This document shows, one piece after another, positions 1 through 6,063 of a DNA stretch of 6,063 nt. Each line of letters opens with the position of its first letter. The stretch's first letter is position 1. The DNA lies in the NCBI GenBank assembly GCA_903916665.1, contig CAIWXP010000100.1:1-6063 (forward strand), read 5' to 3'. The notes under the pieces were generated by a model that saw only the letters and a list, made by a program, of their open reading frames with translations, was not told the DNA's origin and made no database searches. The position numbers were made by a program, and so were the translations under genes. The DNA comes from Candidatus Iainarchaeum sp. (GTDB lineage Archaea; Iainarchaeota; Iainarchaeia; Iainarchaeales; 0-14-0-20-30-16).

Positions 1-1929
1 AATTAAAAAGAACACCAATATCATTGATAACAAAATAAATAAATTTAAGCACAGTCCAACAATACCTAAAATAAATCCTGCCTTTGATAATGATGTTTCT
101 TTTGTTTGTTTTTGGATTATACTAAATACTAATCCTAGGCCAGACAATATAAAAGCAACATAGGGCATCAAAAATAAAAGAATTCCTAAAATTCCTAATA
201 CTAAACTAACAACACCTTTGGTTTCAGATTTATTTTGTTTACTAGAATCAATTTTTCTTTTTAAAAAGAAATAGGTTAAACCAATTGCTATAATTCCAAT
301 TAATACAGTTATAATAAATATCCATGCAGAAGTTTTTGCTGATCCTGCAGGAGTTGTTCTTTCAATAACTATTGCAAAGTAACTAAAGCTAGGTACTGTG
401 GCAGTATAAATATATCTTCCATAGGAATCTTTTGTTGGATAATATAAAGTTGGTAATGATACCCATTCATTGGTTGTTTCATTATAATGAAGTAACTTAG
501 TTCCTAAAGGTTCTTTGCCAGTTGTAAAATCAAAAACAATTTTTGTATAATAGGGTAATGCGCCATCATCAAAGGGGGCTTTATTTTCAACTTTCAAATA
601 GGATTGAATATCATATTTATCACTTGAAGGTGCGCTCAAAGGAACTCTTGGAACCGCATAGTCAGGATTACCAACAATACCTTTTCCTCCTAAAAGTGGT
701 ACTGCTTTGTTTAGATTAACTTCATCTATTGTTGTTATTTCTAAACCCATATTTTGTAAAGATTTTGCAGCAGTAACAACAACATTTTGTACTATTGATG
801 TGTTTGGAAAATCTACACTTACAGTTTCATTTTGATTTGCATTTATTTTTGCTTTATAATATTTTATATAATCTACAATTTGATCTGCTGTTAAATTTTT
901 ATTTCCAGATAATACATTTTCTAATTCATTATATATTTCACTATCCTTTACACTGGCTTCGTCAACAGAAATATGTTGAATAGGATTTTGGTTTTGAGAA
1001 TCAATTTGATTAAATGGATTATTATTTGTTTGTTGGCCTGTTGTTTGATTAGTATTTTGATTTACATTTTGCTGTGTTTGTTGTTGATTATTACTAACTT
1101 CAGCCTGTTGTTTTTCTTCATATTGTTTATCTAATATATCTTGATAAACATGAAATGCAGCATTTGATGCACGACTTAGTTCTTGTTCTGCTAATAATAT
1201 ATCAAACCATTTTTGACATCCTGCAATACCTGCATCAAGGCATTTTGACAAATTACCTGTACCTTCTGGAATAATTCCTGCATTTTGACATCCAAATCCA
1301 CATTCATCAGATGGGTAATATCCCGAACTATCTTTTGCAGATAATTCTGAATCTAATTCTTTAATTCTATCTTGATATTCTTGCTGTATATTAGAACACC
1401 CAGATTCGCCGTTATTAGCAATCAAACAATCCAAATAATTTTTATAAAATTCTTGTGCTTCAGTAATTGCAAATTGTGCTTTTACTTTGTTTACTTCACC
1501 ATCACAATTTCCTCCATCAGCCATTAAATTTTTTAAATAACAACAATCGCTTTCTAAACCATATTGTCCAGGATCTTTACAAATTGATTCTATAGTTGGA
1601 CCATTAAATTCATTACTAGATTGATTTTGTTTTTTAGCTAAAGCATCTTTACAAGCTTGAGAATCTCTTGCTCCACTATTATCTGCACCTGGAGTGCCAC
1701 AACATTCTTGTGGATAGCCTTGAGAAATACATTGAGTATAAACATCATTACTTCCTGAATTAGAGATTGCATGGCAAGAACAATCTGGCCATTGAACTGT
1801 ATTTGTTCCACATCCTTGATTACAATTAAAAGATAAATTAGTATCAACAGCAGAAACAAATGATGCTAAAAATATAGTTAAAACAGAAATAATAAAAATA
1901 AAAAATAAGATTATAAATTCCCTTTTCAT
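1..1929 (-). CDS. Partial CDS (C-terminus beyond window start): secreted, membrane-anchored Cys-rich surface protein, paralog of 1926..3425. Carries a PGF-pre-PGF-like beta domain, a TM anchor and DUF4190-like TM hairpins
   Basis: Not in the ORF track. Manual reverse-complement translation from ATG at 1929..1927 gives 643 sense codons with no stop down to position 1. N-terminus MKREFIILFFIFIISVLTIFLASFVSA|VD is a signal peptide. aa 36-93 (nt 1651-1824), CNQGCGTNTVQWPDCSCHAISNSGSNDVYTQCISQGYPQECCGTPGADNSGARDSQAC, aligns with the upstream protein. Q/N-rich linker at aa ~273-318. ...LLHYNETTNEWVSLPTLYYPTKDSYGRYIYTATVPSFSYFAIV resembles the archaeal PGF-pre-PGF domain ending (..W..L.T....Y.Y.A.TPGFS.FAI). 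TM helix AWIFIITVLIGIIAIGLTYFFL followed by KRK, then G-rich TM hairpins (VVSLVLGILGILLFLMPYVAFILSGLGLVFSII...GFILGIVGLCLNLFILLSMI). GGTAAT SD-like motif (1940..1935) lies 5 nt upstream of the ATG. Confidence 0.85.
   Translation of the reverse strand, partial: MKREFIILFFIFIISVLTIFLASFVSAVDTNLSFNCNQGCGTNTVQWPDCSCHAISNSGSNDVYTQCISQGYPQECCGTPGADNSGARDSQACKDALAKKQNQSSNEFNGPTIESICKDPGQYGLESDCCYLKNLMADGGNCDGEVNKVKAQFAITEAQEFYKNYLDCLIANNGESGCSNIQQEYQDRIKELDSELSAKDSSGYYPSDECGFGCQNAGIIPEGTGNLSKCLDAGIAGCQKWFDILLAEQELSRASNAAFHVYQDILDKQYEEKQQAEVSNNQQQTQQNVNQNTNQTTGQQTNNNPFNQIDSQNQNPIQHISVDEASVKDSEIYNELENVLSGNKNLTADQIVDYIKYYKAKINANQNETVSVDFPNTSIVQNVVVTAAKSLQNMGLEITTIDEVNLNKAVPLLGGKGIVGNPDYAVPRVPLSAPSSDKYDIQSYLKVENKAPFDDGALPYYTKIVFDFTTGKEPLGTKLLHYNETTNEWVSLPTLYYPTKDSYGRYIYTATVPSFSYFAIVIERTTPAGSAKTSAWIFIITVLIGIIAIGLTYFFLKRKIDSSKQNKSETKGVVSLVLGILGILLFLMPYVAFILSGLGLVFSIIQKQTKETSLSKAGFILGIVGLCLNLFILLSMILVFFLI
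976..1113 (-). repeat. Low-complexity Q/N-rich coding linker in the downstream paralog
   Basis: aa ~273-318: KQQAEVSNNQQQTQQNVNQNTNQTTGQQTNNNPFNQIDSQNQNPIQ. Occupies the same architectural position as the linker in the upstream paralog. Confidence 0.7.
1656..1705. repeat. Copy 1 of a 50-nt near-identical segment shared by the two paralogous genes
   Basis: Plus strand cttgagaatctcttgctCcactattatctgcacctggAgtGccacaacat matches 3134-3183 at 47/50 positions. Encodes CCGTPGADNSGARDSQ on the minus strand. Confidence 0.85.
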
Positions 1930-3425
1930 TTTTTATTACCTTTCTTATTATAAAATTTATATACTAATCCTGCAACAACCGCAACTATTATTATAACCAA
2001 TAAAACATACCAGCCAGCATTACTTGATGATGTATTTGAATTATTCCCATCATCAAAACCACTTGCTAAAGAATTAAATTGTTCTTGAGATAGAGTACTT
2101 ACTTTTGTTGTACCCTCTTTAGTTACAATTAATGTATTTCCAGCGTCTAAATCTATAACACTGCCTGCCAAAGGAGTAATCTCTAATTTACCTTCATTTA
2201 AATCAATTTCAGAAACATTTGTATCAGAATTATAGCCAAAAACAAATTCTGTTCCCCTTACTGCTAAAACTGCATTTAATGATCTAAATTTTATTGTTCT
2301 ACCTTCTATTTGTTTCATAATAAAAGCTTTTATTGAGCCTGTATTTAATTTCAATCCTGTTTCTGGATTATGAATTTCAAATGATGAATTTGAACCAATA
2401 CTAATAACACTGCCGTCCATCAAAGTTATTTGTATCTTTCCATTTGAACCAGTTTCAATAACATCTCCTTCACTAAGTAAAGAATCCTTTCCAAATACTT
2501 TTGCTTTACCATCTGCACCAATTAATTTTACTTCGCCATTAAAAGAATATACTGCTCCTGTTTTTGGTTTAAAAAAACTATCTGAATTATTAGTGGTTGC
2601 ATTAGTGTTATCTTTATTACTATTAGCAGTAGTTGTATTTGTATTTTGTCCATTAGTTGTATTTGCCTGTGTTGTTTGATCATTATTTTGGTTAGCTGCA
2701 TTTTGTTGTGCAATTTGATCATTTATTTGTTTTTGAGTTGCTGCTTGTTGAGTTGTTTGCCAATCATTTTGAGCATCTTCTTGAGCATTATACAATGCTT
2801 GAATTTTATCACTTAATGGTTTTTTTGCAGCATCACATTGTGCTCTACAACCTGGTTTATCTCCTCCGTTTGCAGCAGTAACAAACCCAGACCAACAATT
2901 ACATATTTGTCCAACAGTTGTTGAATTTTCTCCTTGATTTAAAACTGCTAATTTTTCTTGATAGGGACCTAATACATCTTGATAAATTTGTAAACAATTA
3001 GTTCCTTTTGTGCTTAAACATGAATAATAAGAATTATAAAAAGTTTGTACTTCTGGATCAGAATAGGTTCTATTAGTAGCTGCTGGCTCTGATTGTATTT
3101 CGTTAGACATTGCATTAAAATCTCTAGCACATTCTTGAGAATCTCTTGCTGCACTATTATCTGCACCTGGTGTTCCACAACATGATGCGGGCATACCCAT
3201 TTGTATACACTGAGTATAAACATTATCTGTATTTGGTTCATCTAAAGCATGACAAGTACAGTCTGGCCATTGAATTGTATTTGCAGAACAGGTTTTATTT
3301 TGGGCATTACAAGTAGTAAATCCAGCATTTACTGTGGGAACATTTAACAATAAAAATAACCCTAAAGTAAATAATACAAAAATCAAAAGAATAGTTTTTT
3401 TAACAAAAGCCATTATAATCACCAT
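1926..3425 (-). CDS. Type-I membrane-anchored surface protein: signal peptide, Cys-rich ectodomain, Q/N/T-rich linker, FecR-type domain, C-terminal TM anchor
   Basis: 499-aa ORF in the track. Signal peptide ...TILLIFVLFTLGLFLLLNVPTVNA|GF. Cys-rich module at aa 39-99 (nt 3129-3311). Low-complexity linker at aa ~216-283. aa ~288-420, GAVYSFNGEVKLIGADGKAKVFGKDSLLSEGDVIETGSNGKIQITLMDGSVISIGSNSSFEI...LNTGSIKAFI...FRSLNAVLAVRGTEFVF...IDLNEGKLEI, matches the FecR (PF04773-type) pattern (GD.i.Tg..g.a.l.l.dGS.i.l..nS.l.i ... G ... V.t..a...VRGT.F.v). C-terminal TM WYVLLVIIIVAVVAGLVY followed by basic tail KFYNKKGNKK. An alternative start at ATG 3413 (MAFVKK...) is preceded by a perfect GGTGAT (3423..3418) with a 4-nt spacer, so the true start may be 3413. 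Confidence 0.9.
   Translation of the reverse strand: MVIIMAFVKKTILLIFVLFTLGLFLLLNVPTVNAGFTTCNAQNKTCSANTIQWPDCTCHALDEPNTDNVYTQCIQMGMPASCCGTPGADNSAARDSQECARDFNAMSNEIQSEPAATNRTYSDPEVQTFYNSYYSCLSTKGTNCLQIYQDVLGPYQEKLAVLNQGENSTTVGQICNCWSGFVTAANGGDKPGCRAQCDAAKKPLSDKIQALYNAQEDAQNDWQTTQQAATQKQINDQIAQQNAANQNNDQTTQANTTNGQNTNTTTANSNKDNTNATTNNSDSFFKPKTGAVYSFNGEVKLIGADGKAKVFGKDSLLSEGDVIETGSNGKIQITLMDGSVISIGSNSSFEIHNPETGLKLNTGSIKAFIMKQIEGRTIKFRSLNAVLAVRGTEFVFGYNSDTNVSEIDLNEGKLEITPLAGSVIDLDAGNTLIVTKEGTTKVSTLSQEQFNSLASGFDDGNNSNTSSSNAGWYVLLVIIIVAVVAGLVYKFYNKKGNKK
2577..2780 (-). repeat. Low-complexity Q/N/T-rich coding linker (CAA/AAT/ACA-rich) in the FecR-domain protein
   Basis: aa ~216-283: EDAQNDWQTTQQAATQKQINDQIAQQNAANQNNDQTTQANTTNGQNTNTTTANSNKDNTNATTNNSDS. 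Contains N-x-S/T sequons (NTT twice, NAT, NNS). Confidence 0.7.
3134..3183. repeat. Copy 2 of the 50-nt near-identical segment
   Basis: Plus strand cttgagaatctcttgctGcactattatctgcacctggTgtTccacaacat. Encodes CCGTPGADNSAARDSQ on the minus strand. A second conserved patch is gcatgRcaagWacaRtctggccattgaaYtgtatttg at ~1768-1805 versus ~3247-3284 (QWPDCxCHA region). Confidence 0.85.
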
Positions 3426-3531: not shown

Positions 3532-4260
3532 ATGGCAACAATAAAACCAAGAGAATTAAGAAAAATTGAAAGAATAAAACCTAGTGGCGACATTAGAGAT
3601 ATAATTGAACGAGATCATAGAGAATCTCGATGGACTAGATTAGGAACTGTTAATAGATTTAAAGAAATATTTATTGATGATTTGGATTTAAAACCCATAA
3701 TAAATTTGTTAAAATTAAGAAAGAAAAACCCAAATGTTTTATTTTTGGGTGCAGGTCAAGGAGACGACATAGTAACATTAAATCATTTATTATCTTTTGC
3801 AAAACTCGAACCTAATTATGATGTTTTAAGCGTTACTAAAAAATTATCTCGGGAAGCTAGGGCAATAGTTAGAAAAGATTTATCGGGTAATTTTGCTTTA
3901 GAAAATGTAATCGCAGATCCTGAAAAATATGTAGAACTAATATCACAAATAAAAGGAAAGTATGATTTAATTATGGCATCATTAAGTATTGGTATTTATA
4001 CTAATTGGCCAGATAGAAATGCATTTGCAACTGCTTTAATGTTGGGGCCAGAAGGAGAGGCCTATATTACCGTTGATTCCACTGGAATTAATCAAAATCC
4101 TAGATTTGGTTTTGAAAACATTAAAAGATTTATTGAATTGGCAAAAAGAGCATATAACAAAAAAAATAAAACTAATTTGAACTTTGAAGTAACTCTAATT
4201 CCTGAAACTAATACAACTATTGTTGGTACATATTACATTTGTATTAAAAGAACCGCTTAA
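3532..4260 (+). CDS. Hypothetical protein with a class-I (Rossmann-fold) SAM-dependent methyltransferase-like core
   Basis: 242-aa ORF. Motif I-like VLFLGAGQGDD (aa 69-79, nt 3736-3768) resembles hh(D/E)hGxGxG. A later YDLIMASLSIG resembles the fDlIvs...l strand of motif III/IV. The usual acidic residue after beta-2 is not obvious (YDVLSVTKK), so catalytic competence is uncertain. The charged N-terminal ~60 aa has no recognisable motif. A TATA-like box sits at -29..-22. Confidence 0.75.
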   Translation: MATIKPRELRKIERIKPSGDIRDIIERDHRESRWTRLGTVNRFKEIFIDDLDLKPIINLLKLRKKNPNVLFLGAGQGDDIVTLNHLLSFAKLEPNYDVLSVTKKLSREARAIVRKDLSGNFALENVIADPEKYVELISQIKGKYDLIMASLSIGIYTNWPDRNAFATALMLGPEGEAYITVDSTGINQNPRFGFENIKRFIELAKRAYNKKNKTNLNFEVTLIPETNTTIVGTYYICIKRTA

Positions 4261-4305: not shown

Positions 4306-4743
4306 ATGGTGTCTAAATTACAATTAGTAAAAACTAAAGATTTTAAAGAAATTGCTAAAATATATTGTAATGAATTCTCTAAAGACCCTTATAATGAAAA
4401 GTGGACTAATTCTATTGCATTAAAGCGATTAAAAAGTTATTCTAAATTTTGTGATATGTGGAAATTAGTCTTAGATAAAGAAATAATAGGATTTTTTGTA
4501 ATGAATACCAGTAGATGGTTTCCTAAACTAGTTTGCTTTGGAGAAGAACAAGCAATAGAATCAAAATATCAAAATAAAGGCTATGGAAAATATATGCTAA
4601 ATAAATTATTTGAAATATACAAAAAGAAAGGTTATAAGTATTATATGGGCATTGTTAATGTTAAAGGCAAAGCATTAAAATTAAATAAATCTATTGGAGT
4701 AAAAACATCAAAAGAAAATATATTAATTGAAAAAATGTTATAA
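4306..4743 (+). CDS. GNAT-family N-acetyltransferase
   Basis: 145-aa ORF. Canonical acetyl-CoA-binding motif A, Q-x-x-G-x-G, is present as QNKGYG (aa 89-94, nt 4570-4587) within AIESKYQNKGYGKYMLNKLFEIYKKKGYKY (beta4-alpha3 pattern). Size is typical of single-domain GNATs. TTGAT (4296-4300) lies 5 nt upstream of the ATG. Tandem stops TAA TAG. Confidence 0.85.
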   Translation: MVSKLQLVKTKDFKEIAKIYCNEFSKDPYNEKWTNSIALKRLKSYSKFCDMWKLVLDKEIIGFFVMNTSRWFPKLVCFGEEQAIESKYQNKGYGKYMLNKLFEIYKKKGYKYYMGIVNVKGKALKLNKSIGVKTSKENILIEKML

Positions 4744-4755
4744 TAGTTGATAACT

Positions 4756-5145
4756 ATGAATATTATTTTAGAATTGCCAATTAAAAAAGATAAATTAGAT
4801 TGTGGTTCACCTTTAGGCCCTCTGTTAGCACCCTATGGTGTTAATATTAACAAAGTAGTTGATGCTTTAAACAAAATGTTAGCAGAAAATAAAATTACAA
4901 TACATTCTAAAGTTCACATTGAAATTGATTTGGAAGATAGATCTTGGAAATTTGTTGAAACTCATAAGAAAATTACTGAACAATTAAAAGAACTTTCAAA
5001 AAACGGGAAAATAAACTATTCAGATTTATTCTCTTTTGCAAAAAAATCCTTAGATAAAGATGATCTTGGAGACCTATCAAGAAAAATAAAAGATCTGGAA
5101 GGAACCTGTAAAAGTATGCATTTGGAAATTATTAAACAGATTTAA
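4756..5145 (+). CDS. Divergent, short ribosomal protein uL11 (L11)-like protein
   Basis: The track ORF starts at TTG 4747. ATG 4756 is preferred because TTGAT at 4747-4751 acts as an SD-like motif 4 nt upstream. Product MNIILELPIKKDKLDCGSPLGPLLAPYGVNINKVVDALNK...KVHIEIDLEDRSWKFVETHKKITEQLKEL...GKINYSDLFSFAKKSL...IKDLEGTCKSMHLEI aligns by eye with E. coli L11: ...[26 protein letters not shown]...[27 protein letters not shown]...GKISRAQLQEIAQTK...IEGTARSMGLVV. The conserved G-x-KSGSG-x-P loop between the two domains is missing, and the protein is ~129 aa versus ~140-165 aa for typical L11. Confidence 0.75.
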   Translation: MNIILELPIKKDKLDCGSPLGPLLAPYGVNINKVVDALNKMLAENKITIHSKVHIEIDLEDRSWKFVETHKKITEQLKELSKNGKINYSDLFSFAKKSLDKDDLGDLSRKIKDLEGTCKSMHLEIIKQI

Positions 5146-5254
5146 AATATTTCTTTAATTCTTCTAATGACATTGATTTTTTATTTTTAGTCTCTTCAGC
5201 AATTTTTAAAATATGTTTTATATATTTATTTGAAAATTCCTTCTTTTTAACCAT
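5132..5254 (-). CDS. Candidate 40-aa micro-ORF with a ribbon-helix-helix-like pattern (hypothetical)
   Basis: Hand translation: ATG 5254..5252 to TAA 5134..5132 gives MVKKKEFSNKYIKHILKIAEETKNKKSMSLEELKKYFKSV. It is below the ORF-track length cutoff. The spacing is RHH/CopG-like: short N-terminal strand, helix (YIKHILKIAEETK), turn, and an S-x-S-capped second helix (SMSLEELKKYF). It lies 34 nt downstream of the Nudix gene stop on the same strand, with TTTTTAAG at -29..-22. It overlaps the 3' end of the uL11-like gene by 14 nt. In AT/Lys-rich DNA this could be chance. Confidence 0.3.
   Translation of the reverse strand: MVKKKEFSNKYIKHILKIAEETKNKKSMSLEELKKYFKSV
5177..5188 (+). terminator. Possible oligo-T termination signal downstream of the uL11-like gene
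   Basis: TTTTTTATTTTT begins 32 nt after stop codon 5143-5145. Archaeal RNAP terminates at oligo-T tracts. The same bases would encode KNKK of the candidate minus-strand micro-ORF, so the two readings compete. Confidence 0.25.
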
Positions 5255-5288
5255 AATATAAATAATATACATATTCTTAAAAATGGTA

Positions 5289-6011
5289 CTAACCTATTTT
5301 TTTATATTCTATTTTCAAAAATTTATTTCCTTCTTTAAACATTTTAATTTCATATAAAGCTAAAGAATGATGATTTTCAAGCATATCAAAAATAATTATA
5401 TTATCAGGAAATAATCTATTTTCTTTGTGTTTCTTTTCAAATTCTTTTTTATCAACAAAATGATAATCTCCTTCTCTGTTTTGTTCAATTAATATTCCTT
5501 CTGGATCTTCAAATAAAACAACAAATTGAGAAAAGTGTGTCAAAGGATTTTCTTTCTCAAAAGTTAAAATATTACTTACTGCAATTAATTTACCTTCCCC
5601 TTTTAAACCAGTTTCTTCAAATAATTCTCTTTTTGCACCTTCTAATACTTGTTCACCAAAATCTAATTTGGCGCCAGGCATTCCATACATATCGTAGAAT
5701 GGTTCCTTTAGTCTATGATATAGCAAATACTTATCTCCTTTTTTTACTACTAATAGCAAAGCAACAAATGGCCTTTCTCTTTTCTTTCCTGTTTTACCAT
5801 CTAAATCACTTTCATATCTTTGGCCTAAAGTAGTTAATGAATATTTTTTATCCTCATTTTTTACAACTAAACCTTCATCAATCAATTTATTTAAATGATA
5901 GGTAAATTCATTGGAAGGAACACTTTTATCAGATAAATCAGAAAAACTAGCCTGCGGATTATGTATCAATGTTTTAATTATTAATTCTTTTATTTCTTTA
6001 TCGTTTGTCAT
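5289..6011 (-). CDS. Winged-helix (ArsR/MarR-like) DNA-binding domain fused to a C-terminal Nudix hydrolase domain
   Basis: The track ORF starts at TTG 6047. I prefer ATG 6011 (MTNDKEIKELI...) because the 36 nt between them contain a consensus archaeal TATA box (TTTATATA, 6040..6033). wHTH pattern: ELIIKTLIHNPQASFSDLSDKSVPSNEFTYHLNKLIDEGLVVKNEDKKYSLTTLGQ. Nudix box (nt 5604-5675): GAKLDFGEQVLEGAKRELFEETGL fits E-x7-REUxEExGU, with the usual first Gly of G-x5-E replaced by Ala (PGAKLDFGE versus the typical PGGklEpGE). Confidence 0.85.
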   Translation of the reverse strand: MTNDKEIKELIIKTLIHNPQASFSDLSDKSVPSNEFTYHLNKLIDEGLVVKNEDKKYSLTTLGQRYESDLDGKTGKKRERPFVALLLVVKKGDKYLLYHRLKEPFYDMYGMPGAKLDFGEQVLEGAKRELFEETGLKGEGKLIAVSNILTFEKENPLTHFSQFVVLFEDPEGILIEQNREGDYHFVDKKEFEKKHKENRLFPDNIIIFDMLENHHSLALYEIKMFKEGNKFLKIEYKKIG

Positions 6012-6032
6012 ATTATTATTGGAGAGAAACAA

Positions 6033-6040
6033 TATATAAA
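6033..6040 (-). promoter_or_regulatory. Archaeal-type TATA box for the wHTH-Nudix gene (leaderless architecture)
   Basis: The minus strand reads TTTATATA at 6040..6033, centred ~25 nt upstream of ATG 6011. No SD-like motif lies between them. Confidence 0.5.
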
Positions 6041-6063
6041 GAATCAAGTCAAAAACTTTTGAG

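Follow-up and report, generated by a model that had tools for sequence, protein, structure and literature searches.

What is encoded at positions 4756–5145 of a 6,063-nt stretch of DNA from Candidatus Iainarchaeum sp. (GCA_903916665.1, contig CAIWXP010000100.1, forward strand; hereafter the window, meaning the whole stretch), and does its 129-aa product belong to the ribosome? The ribosomal protein uL11 is universal and usually among the best conserved of the ribosomal proteins; it lies at the docking place of the translational GTPases and is the target of thiopeptides. The original prediction, made from the window alone, had called the product a highly divergent, shortened uL11-like protein and offered two explanations, a non-ribosomal or specialised paralog, or the sole, fast-evolving uL11 of a reduced genome. 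We conclude that the gene is very probably the orthologous rpl11, in a reduced form specific to its lineage, of a DPANN archaeon of the Diapherotrites type. It is a known protein in a variant form rather than something new in kind: at JGI, two of the less derived members of its clade already go by the name L11, and the window's own subfamily is unnamed in every source.

Homology to uL11 over both domains

The rpl11 open reading frame (ORF) was read on the + strand from an ATG at 4756 to a stop codon at 5143–5145, exactly the extent originally given. An alternative TTG start at 4747 would add three codons; because the equivalent Met opens every homolog (MNIILEL or MKILKEI), the ATG was taken as the start. 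The three strings that had been quoted as landmarks of uL11 are present in the product: SPLGPLLAPYGVNI at residues 18–31, DRSWKFVET at 61–69 and LEGTCKSMHLEI at 114–125. The family collected around this protein comprised 11 sequence clusters at 45–98% identity, and ~20 clusters with the wider clade of short relatives (the short clade). The clade is rare, with these ~20 clusters among 5.8 billion sequences, and with two GTDB species.

The N-terminal domain was matched by Pfam L11_N (PF03946) with E=4.5e-7 and 30.0 bits, residues 16–63 aligning with profile positions 12–57 of 58; the gathering score of this family is 32.9 bits. There was no match of the window uL11 to the C-terminal domain family PF00298, and a 72%-identical ortholog scored 19.7 bits (E=1e-3), below the cut-off of 21.4 bits. 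The NCBIfam archaeal L11 model gave 34.0 bits (E=3e-8) and the bacterial model 32.7 bits (E=6e-8, residues 4–126), the NCBIfam L11 cut-offs being 142–162 bits. All significant phmmer matches among PDB sequences were L11 chains. The best of these were bacterial (D. radiodurans, E=7e-5), with full-length alignments, and the phmmer and NCBIfam alignments extended to residues 123–126. An hhalign comparison between a profile of 17 family members and nine canonical archaeal uL11 sequences gave a match of 99.8% probability (E=2.4e-27), which spanned 123 columns and residues 2–124; inside it, the C-domain was aligned as query 70–124 against template 71–137.

The AlphaFold modelling that had been proposed as a check was carried out on the family alignment. 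The AlphaFold2 model had a mean predicted local distance difference test score (pLDDT) of 83.2 and a predicted TM-score (pTM) of 0.53, the latter as expected for two domains joined by a flexible linker. It has the two-domain L11 fold. The top 50 Foldseek matches in the PDB were all L11, the best being M. jannaschii 5col (E=3.6e-7), and the modelled N-domain alone superposed on the T. thermophilus L11 N-terminal domain (3cjs_C) with a target-normalised TM-score of 0.80 and a root-mean-square deviation of 2.1 Å. The resemblance to L11, although weak for a ribosomal protein, greatly exceeds chance. The Pfam, NCBIfam, PDB, hhalign and Foldseek results together demonstrate that the window gene is homologous to uL11 over both domains, as the original prediction had held, the C-domain being matched via hhalign and not PF00298.

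Curated annotation would miss this protein, since 30.0 bits is below the Pfam gathering score; the Diapherotrites ortholog PIU21953.1 is labelled a hypothetical protein at NCBI. One candidate relative, P0016, was rejected as a false positive. It is a 3,722-aa eukaryote-type repeat protein whose E=9e-19 arose from 20 weak repeat matches to profile positions 7–43, and it is a caution for profile searches that use this uL11 family.

The gene and its parts are as follows.

4756..5145, + strand: rpl11, very probably a reduced archaeal uL11 (ORF, L11 homology, fold model, position of orthologs after spt5, substitution rates)
4756..4956, + strand: N-terminal factor-facing domain, residues 1–67 (PF03946; model compared with 3cjs_C)
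4807..4839, + strand: helix-1 motif S18-P-L-G-P-L-L-A-P-Y-G28, counterpart of canonical PPLGPALGPLG (read directly from the sequence)
4963..5142, + strand: C-terminal rRNA-binding domain, reduced, residues 70–129 (hhalign; PF00298 at 19.7 bits in the ortholog)
5005..5010, + strand: deletion junction between G84 and K85 (same gap site in phmmer, MAFFT and hhalign)
5101..5121, + strand: G116-T-C-K-S-M-H122, counterpart of archaeal GTC(K/V)S(M/I)G (codons read; aligned to GTCxSxG by MAFFT and hhalign)
5143..5145, + strand: stop codon, 7 residues past H122; the archaeal tail of ~30 residues (GKDPxE...GxY...) is missing

In the model, the N-domain consists of strands at residues 2–8, 52–58 and 63–66 and helices at 20–27 and 31–43. 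The reported loss of one Pro from the PP-x-GP motif of helix 1 is real, the first Pro of the pair being Ser18. This half of the motif is variable in the family, with Ser-Pro in the window, Pro-Pro in some members and one residue fewer in others; G21, P22, A25, Y27 and G28 do not vary. Contact with eEF2 is made through the GPLG motif of helix 1 (PMC9122527), and thiostrepton resistance in bacteria arises from Pro-to-Ser/Thr changes in the helix-1 stretch (PMC1802607).

The modelled C-domain has helices at residues 73–80, 88–98 and 104–120 and a short beta ribbon. Between the first two of these helices, the 12 residues that form the induced-fit loop (IEKGSGTPNTVK in the canonical protein) are deleted, and the phmmer, MAFFT and hhalign alignments each contain a single 12-column gap here, which bears out the reported absence of the K-G-S-G-x-P loop. 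The loop corresponds to T. maritima residues 86–96 and is an induced-fit element that makes many of the rRNA contacts of the C-domain (PMC1802607). The most conserved block in the family is GTCKSMH, in which G116, K119, S120, M121 and H122 are invariant in 17/17 short-clade sequences. Six of the seven positions of the G-T-x-x-S-M-G motif are kept, and the terminal Gly is replaced by His in all 17. A second loss, not mentioned in the original prediction, is that of the C-terminal tail of ~30 residues: the hhalign match stops at template column 137 of 169, leaving columns 138–169 unmatched. Across 11 sequences of the window's subfamily, 23 columns are invariant.

Genomic position, selection and descent

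The window is an entire contig, at 6,063 bp the longest to carry its proteins, and terminates 16 nt past the Nudix gene that follows rpl11. Look-ups for contigs that would extend it, by exact protein match, gave nothing for the Nudix protein (two possible starts) and only a 580-bp contig for the neighbouring GNAT acetyltransferase. Related loci had the following gene orders.

L005 (NCBI GCA_053535935.1): FtsZ, Spt5, GNAT, inserts, L11-like, then convergent small ORFs, winged helix-turn-helix (wHTH)-Nudix, P1, L10, L1
L016 (GCA_053535955.1): FtsZ, SecE, Spt5, GNAT, L11-like
L008 (JGI 3300013136): FtsZ, SecE, Spt5, a 130-aa gene, L11-like, then convergent P1, L10, L1
L017/L013 (Candidatus Diapherotrites archaeon PEXK01, 72–73% identical): FtsZ, Spt5, a 119-aa gene (- strand), L11-like, then P1, L10, L1; Pfam-confirmed
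L012/L018 (Logan SRR16642441 / CAZMGA01 uncultured archaeon): Spt5 end at 9965, L11-like start at 10001, then Nudix, P1, L10 and L1 within 3.2 kb
P0012 contig (wider clade, ~41% identical): FtsZ, SecE, Spt5, L11

Wherever a relative's flanking DNA was long enough, the L11-like gene occupied the archaeal ftsZ-secE-spt5-[rpl11] slot, and in four lineages it was accompanied by convergent P1-L10-L1 genes. Both ftsZ-secE-spt5 and L11-L1-L10-L12 are recognised as conserved archaeal segments (PMC10833476). The gene had been described as lying outside any ribosomal-protein cluster. This holds inside the window only: the relatives place the same GNAT and Nudix genes between spt5 and P1-L10-L1, and the apparent lack of a cluster is an artefact of a window that is a complete contig and ends. 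The presence of the same divergent protein after spt5 and beside L1-L10-P1 in the relatives indicates that the window gene is a syntenic ortholog, not a paralog.

Between the same pairs of genomes, the L11-like proteins were 39–57% identical, compared with 82–92% for Spt5, 78–84% for FtsZ, 82–84% for TBP, 61–75% for L1, 63–74% for P1 and 51–77% for L10. By these pairwise identities across lineages, the L11-like gene is the fastest-evolving in its neighbourhood. Canonical archaeal L11 scored ~83+83 Pfam bits in its two domains, the short clade 23–54 bits in the N-domain and at most 22.5 bits in the C-domain. At the L017 locus, L1 reached 142 bits and both L10 and P1 scored well above their Pfam cut-offs; the L11-like protein was below the cut-off for both domains. 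The identities of neighbouring genes and the Pfam scores show that the divergence is specific to the L11-like gene. Between L005 and L016, the ratio of non-synonymous to synonymous substitution rates (dN/dS) of the L11-like gene was 0.088 (dN 0.081, dS 0.92), comparable to FtsZ at 0.076 and IF-2B at 0.125; its dN exceeded the FtsZ value by a factor of ~2.5 and the Spt5 value by a factor of ~5. The rpl11 gene of this clade is under purifying selection and is not decaying, and a pseudogene was rejected on the dN/dS.

Another explanation is that a dispensable uL11 is being lost, its product no longer working in the ribosome. The top substitution rate in the neighbourhood, the absence of both the main rRNA-contact loop and the tail, and the viability of uL11 knock-outs in E. 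coli and yeast (10.1101/755876; PMC9122527) would fit such a remnant, as would P0001, a 98%-identical variant of the window uL11 on a 1,537-bp ENA contig. P0001 stops at 108 aa with a different C-terminus (…DKDEFIKIK) and lacks the GTCKSMH block; it may be a truncated allele that really exists, or it may stem from a frameshift or from faulty assembly. A remnant is nevertheless very unlikely in view of an intact ORF of 115–130 aa in ~20 sequence clusters, a dN/dS of 0.088 at a dS of 0.92, invariant helix-1 and GTCKSMH blocks, and a predicted two-domain fold of good confidence.

The first of the two explanations originally offered was a specialised or non-ribosomal paralog, acting as an alternative stalk-base protein, a factor decoy or an RNA binder, with a canonical uL11 encoded elsewhere. 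Its appeal lies in a divergence that is extreme for a universal ribosomal protein and takes it below curated cut-offs of hidden Markov models (HMMs), in the non-ribosomal genes that flank the window gene, and in a search for second copies that covered individual loci. That search, by tblastn with canonical archaeal and bacterial L11, found only one gene per fetched locus (loci up to 20 kb), and against a paralog stands the orthologous slot after spt5 and beside P1-L10-L1, occupied in all lineages with enough flanking DNA and with no other L11 in these clusters or loci. The N-domain scores are graded, from ~60 bits in P0026 via 54, 45, 36, 31, 30 and 23 bits in the short clade down to no match, which looks like one diverging lineage; and its less derived members already carry the L11 label. 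We consider a paralog highly improbable. As to the test that had been suggested for it, the part concerning related genomes came out against a paralog, with similarly divergent uL11 genes in ordinary ribosomal operons; copy number was covered at the level of the loci. The other original explanation, that a reduced genome has a fast-evolving uL11, agrees with the DPANN/Diapherotrites lineage and the fastest gene in the neighbourhood, its sole-copy part aside.

The lineage is archaeal, because the contigs with a short-clade uL11 also bear TBP, MCM, Spt5, P1 and L10P-insert genes and, among named genomes, a Candidatus Diapherotrites (DPANN) metagenome-assembled genome (MAG) comes closest. Consistent with this, the archaeal uL11 HMM outscored the bacterial one in 16 of 17 short-clade sequences, by about 2:1 in the less derived members (88 vs 44 bits in P0013, 81 vs 37 bits in P0018); archaeal-type motifs (GTCKSM, KVVxxIN and the D-x3-R spacing) were present; and a neighbour-joining tree recovered the short clade as monophyletic and next to further archaeal-like uL11s of reduced form. 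Replacement of the archaeal gene by a horizontally transferred bacterial-type L11, which would explain the bacterial-like length and the missing tail and would suit both the full-length bacterial matches in the PDB and the span of the NCBIfam bacterial model, is extremely unlikely, a bacterial xenolog being rejected on the HMM scores and motifs above, with the slightly higher archaeal NCBIfam score (34.0 vs 32.7), the best Foldseek match to archaeal 5col and the archaeal synteny pointing the same way.

Two further genes of these archaeal contigs were recorded. In L013, the 73%-identical relative, the MCM helicase (5645–8404, - strand) and a 610-aa thioredoxin-domain protein (8503–10335, + strand) contain intein-splicing domains; their L005 orthologs are intein-free (781 aa and 122 aa).

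Several points weigh against reading the gene as an orthologous uL11 that still works in the ribosome. The window protein falls short of the curated cut-offs (Pfam 30.0 vs 32.9 bits; no PF00298 match; NCBIfam 34 vs 162 bits). Neither spt5 nor L1-L10-P1 is visible in the window itself, as the contig ends, and the linkage to spt5 may be broken in the window organism, given an orphan gene and two minus-strand FecR-domain genes upstream. The loci only were covered, and a second, canonical uL11 may lie elsewhere in the genome. Ribosome association and rRNA binding are properties that we infer for the reduced protein; the lost loop normally gives many rRNA contacts, so unchanged binding cannot be assumed.

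Neighbouring genes

The other genes of the window are as follows.

1–1932 and 1926–3425, - strand: secreted/membrane-anchored paralogs in tandem, FecR-domain genes; the first runs off the contig start
3532–4260, + strand: orphan 242-aa gene; its sole match among 5.8 billion proteins is itself
4306..4743, + strand: GNAT acetyltransferase (Pfam PF00583, 29.8 bits vs cut-off of 20.7)
5289..6047, - strand: convergent wHTH-Nudix gene (Pfam NUDIX, 42.8 bits, and weak wHTH matches)

Pfam upheld the original naming of a GNAT and a Nudix protein as the neighbours of rpl11. Relatives of the GNAT lie directly after spt5 in L005 (8379–8816) and L016 (5578–6003) and are 63–64% identical to it (L005 8391–8816, L016 5590–5991), so that it is better conserved than uL11 (48%); it also has weak RimI-like matches (E=6e-5). 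Several lineages keep the gene directly between spt5 and rpl11. Only 12 nt separate its end from rpl11 in the window, so the two are probably co-transcribed, and we speculate that the GNAT acetylates a stalk or ribosomal protein. The Nudix protein is 66% identical to those of L005/L006 and L012/L018 (L005 10840–11556; L018 10363–10764), which lie between rpl11 and P1-L10-L1. An N-terminal winged-helix domain is present on the Nudix protein of the window and of L005; the L012/L018 protein, of 133 aa, is without it.

Convergent to rpl11, a 46-aa ORF (5132–5272, - strand) shares the last 14 nt of the gene. It was called by gene callers on further contigs of the same organism, and the ORF that takes its place in L008–L011 resembles it weakly (40% over 35 aa, E=4e-4). 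Rfam and tRNA scans of the window found no RNA features.

A methyltransferase fold had been assigned to the gene at 3532–4260, an assignment that was not borne out. Its product had no match in Pfam or NCBIfam, a best PDB match of E=0.32 and no homologs. No relationship links it to the 259-aa insert of L005, and a single-sequence AlphaFold2 model of it had a pLDDT of 40. It does hold a loosely motif-I-like string, VLFLGAGQGDD. The idea that it is an analogue of PrmA, the bacterial L11 methyltransferase, was rejected as unsupported by any family match, homolog or confident model. The two tandem paralogs at the start of the contig each begin with a signal peptide and end in a transmembrane anchor, and their Cys-rich N-termini have the motif T-x-QWPDC-x-CHA in common; in the complete copy (1926–3425) there are, in addition, a FecR domain (E=7e-10) and a low-complexity linker rich in N, Q and T.

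The stalk base and comparison with known uL11s

If the gene is an orthologous rpl11, the reduced uL11 would still form part of the P-stalk base. The three-helix core that it retains and, with it, the invariant GTCKSMH region would be the main anchor of its C-domain on H43/H44 of 23S rRNA, and its N-domain would offer the conserved GP..APYG helix to aEF2, aEF1A and aRF1. Loss of the loop contacts would plausibly be tolerated because uL11 is intrinsically dispensable or semi-dispensable and because it binds cooperatively with uL10/P0; changes in the rRNA may add compensation for the lost loop. This would be in keeping with reports that E. coli and yeast can do without uL11, although their growth suffers (10.1101/755876; PMC9122527; PMC2175356), and that archaeal L11 and the L10/L12 complex bind rRNA cooperatively (PMC1635324). 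Relaxed constraint on uL11 alone would then yield a high substitution rate and a protein that HMM-based annotation misses.

The uL10/P0 proteins of these genomes are also short, at only 285–288 aa (L017 7309–8166, L005 12083–12946 and L008 11394–12260, all - strand). Their last residues are …RIANALGKKVI, so that they lack the acidic C-terminus of GLGALFG type which archaeal L10 and P1 normally have in common (PMC1635324); P1 retains …AGLGALFG. The stalk as a whole may therefore be streamlined. A broader proposal is that the whole P-stalk base of the Diapherotrites clade has been remodelled, with a uL11 lacking loop and tail, a uL10/P0 of ~285 aa without a P1-like factor-binding C-terminus, co-evolved H43/H44 rRNA, and GNAT and Nudix proteins that modify or regulate stalk components. 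We regard this as unlikely; if true, both the recruitment of factors and the sensitivity to thiopeptides would be altered at the GTPase-associated centre.

Our literature searches found no description of a reduced uL11 in DPANN. The clade is a natural experiment on the minimum needs of the stalk base, the loop being deleted and the gene kept under purifying selection, and the window uL11 is a tidy example of reductive evolution in the GTPase-associated centre. Because the protein falls short of the Pfam and NCBIfam cut-offs and an ortholog is annotated as hypothetical, such MAGs would probably be recorded as lacking uL11 by marker-gene pipelines. Estimates of their completeness could be biased as a result, and so could claims that DPANN have lost ribosomal proteins; an HMM built for this family would remedy this.

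Canonical archaeal uL11 (M. jannaschii 5col, 5d8h and 5dar; NF002232) resembles the window protein in its two-domain fold, the helix-1 GP...G, the GTCxSM near the C-terminus and the position after spt5 and beside L1-L10-P1, the last as seen in the relatives. It differs in length (~157–164 aa vs 129 aa, at ~23% identity) and in Pfam scores (~83 and ~83 bits vs 30 and 0), and it has the IEKGSGTPNTVK loop, the ~30-residue tail, SMG and PP, whereas in the window uL11 loop and tail are missing and the motifs read SMH and SP.

Bacterial uL11 (RplK; TIGR01632; T. maritima 1mms, D. radiodurans 1nkw) shares the fold, a similar length and the lack of a C-terminal tail, and aligns over its full length with the window protein at 28–29% identity. 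Unlike the window protein, it retains the induced-fit loop (residues 86–96) and has GTARSMG and EFxKxFN motifs, and the short clade scores lower with the bacterial HMM than with the archaeal one.

Other reduced uL11s were found, some archaeal-like (P0026, 145 aa; P0031, 128 aa; P0034, 130 aa) and others AT-rich and bacterial- or organelle-like, without the loop (P0020, P0022, P0024, P0074 and P0076). A very divergent L11-like group (P0029, P0030, P0032, P0036, P0043 and P0094) was also seen, in which only GP-x-G is left of helix 1's motif and the C-terminal motif is I-(L/I)-(K/R)-S; the short proteins of this group and of the AT-rich set span 118–130 aa. The other reduced uL11s are shortened and several lack the loop, as in the window's clade, but they form separate lineages in the tree and mostly have a stronger N-domain (63 bits in P0031, 60+32 bits in P0026). 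None of them has the SMH signature of the window's clade, which does occur in the bacterial-type P0038. The existence of several separate reduced uL11s without the loop suggests that it may have been lost repeatedly in reduced genomes.

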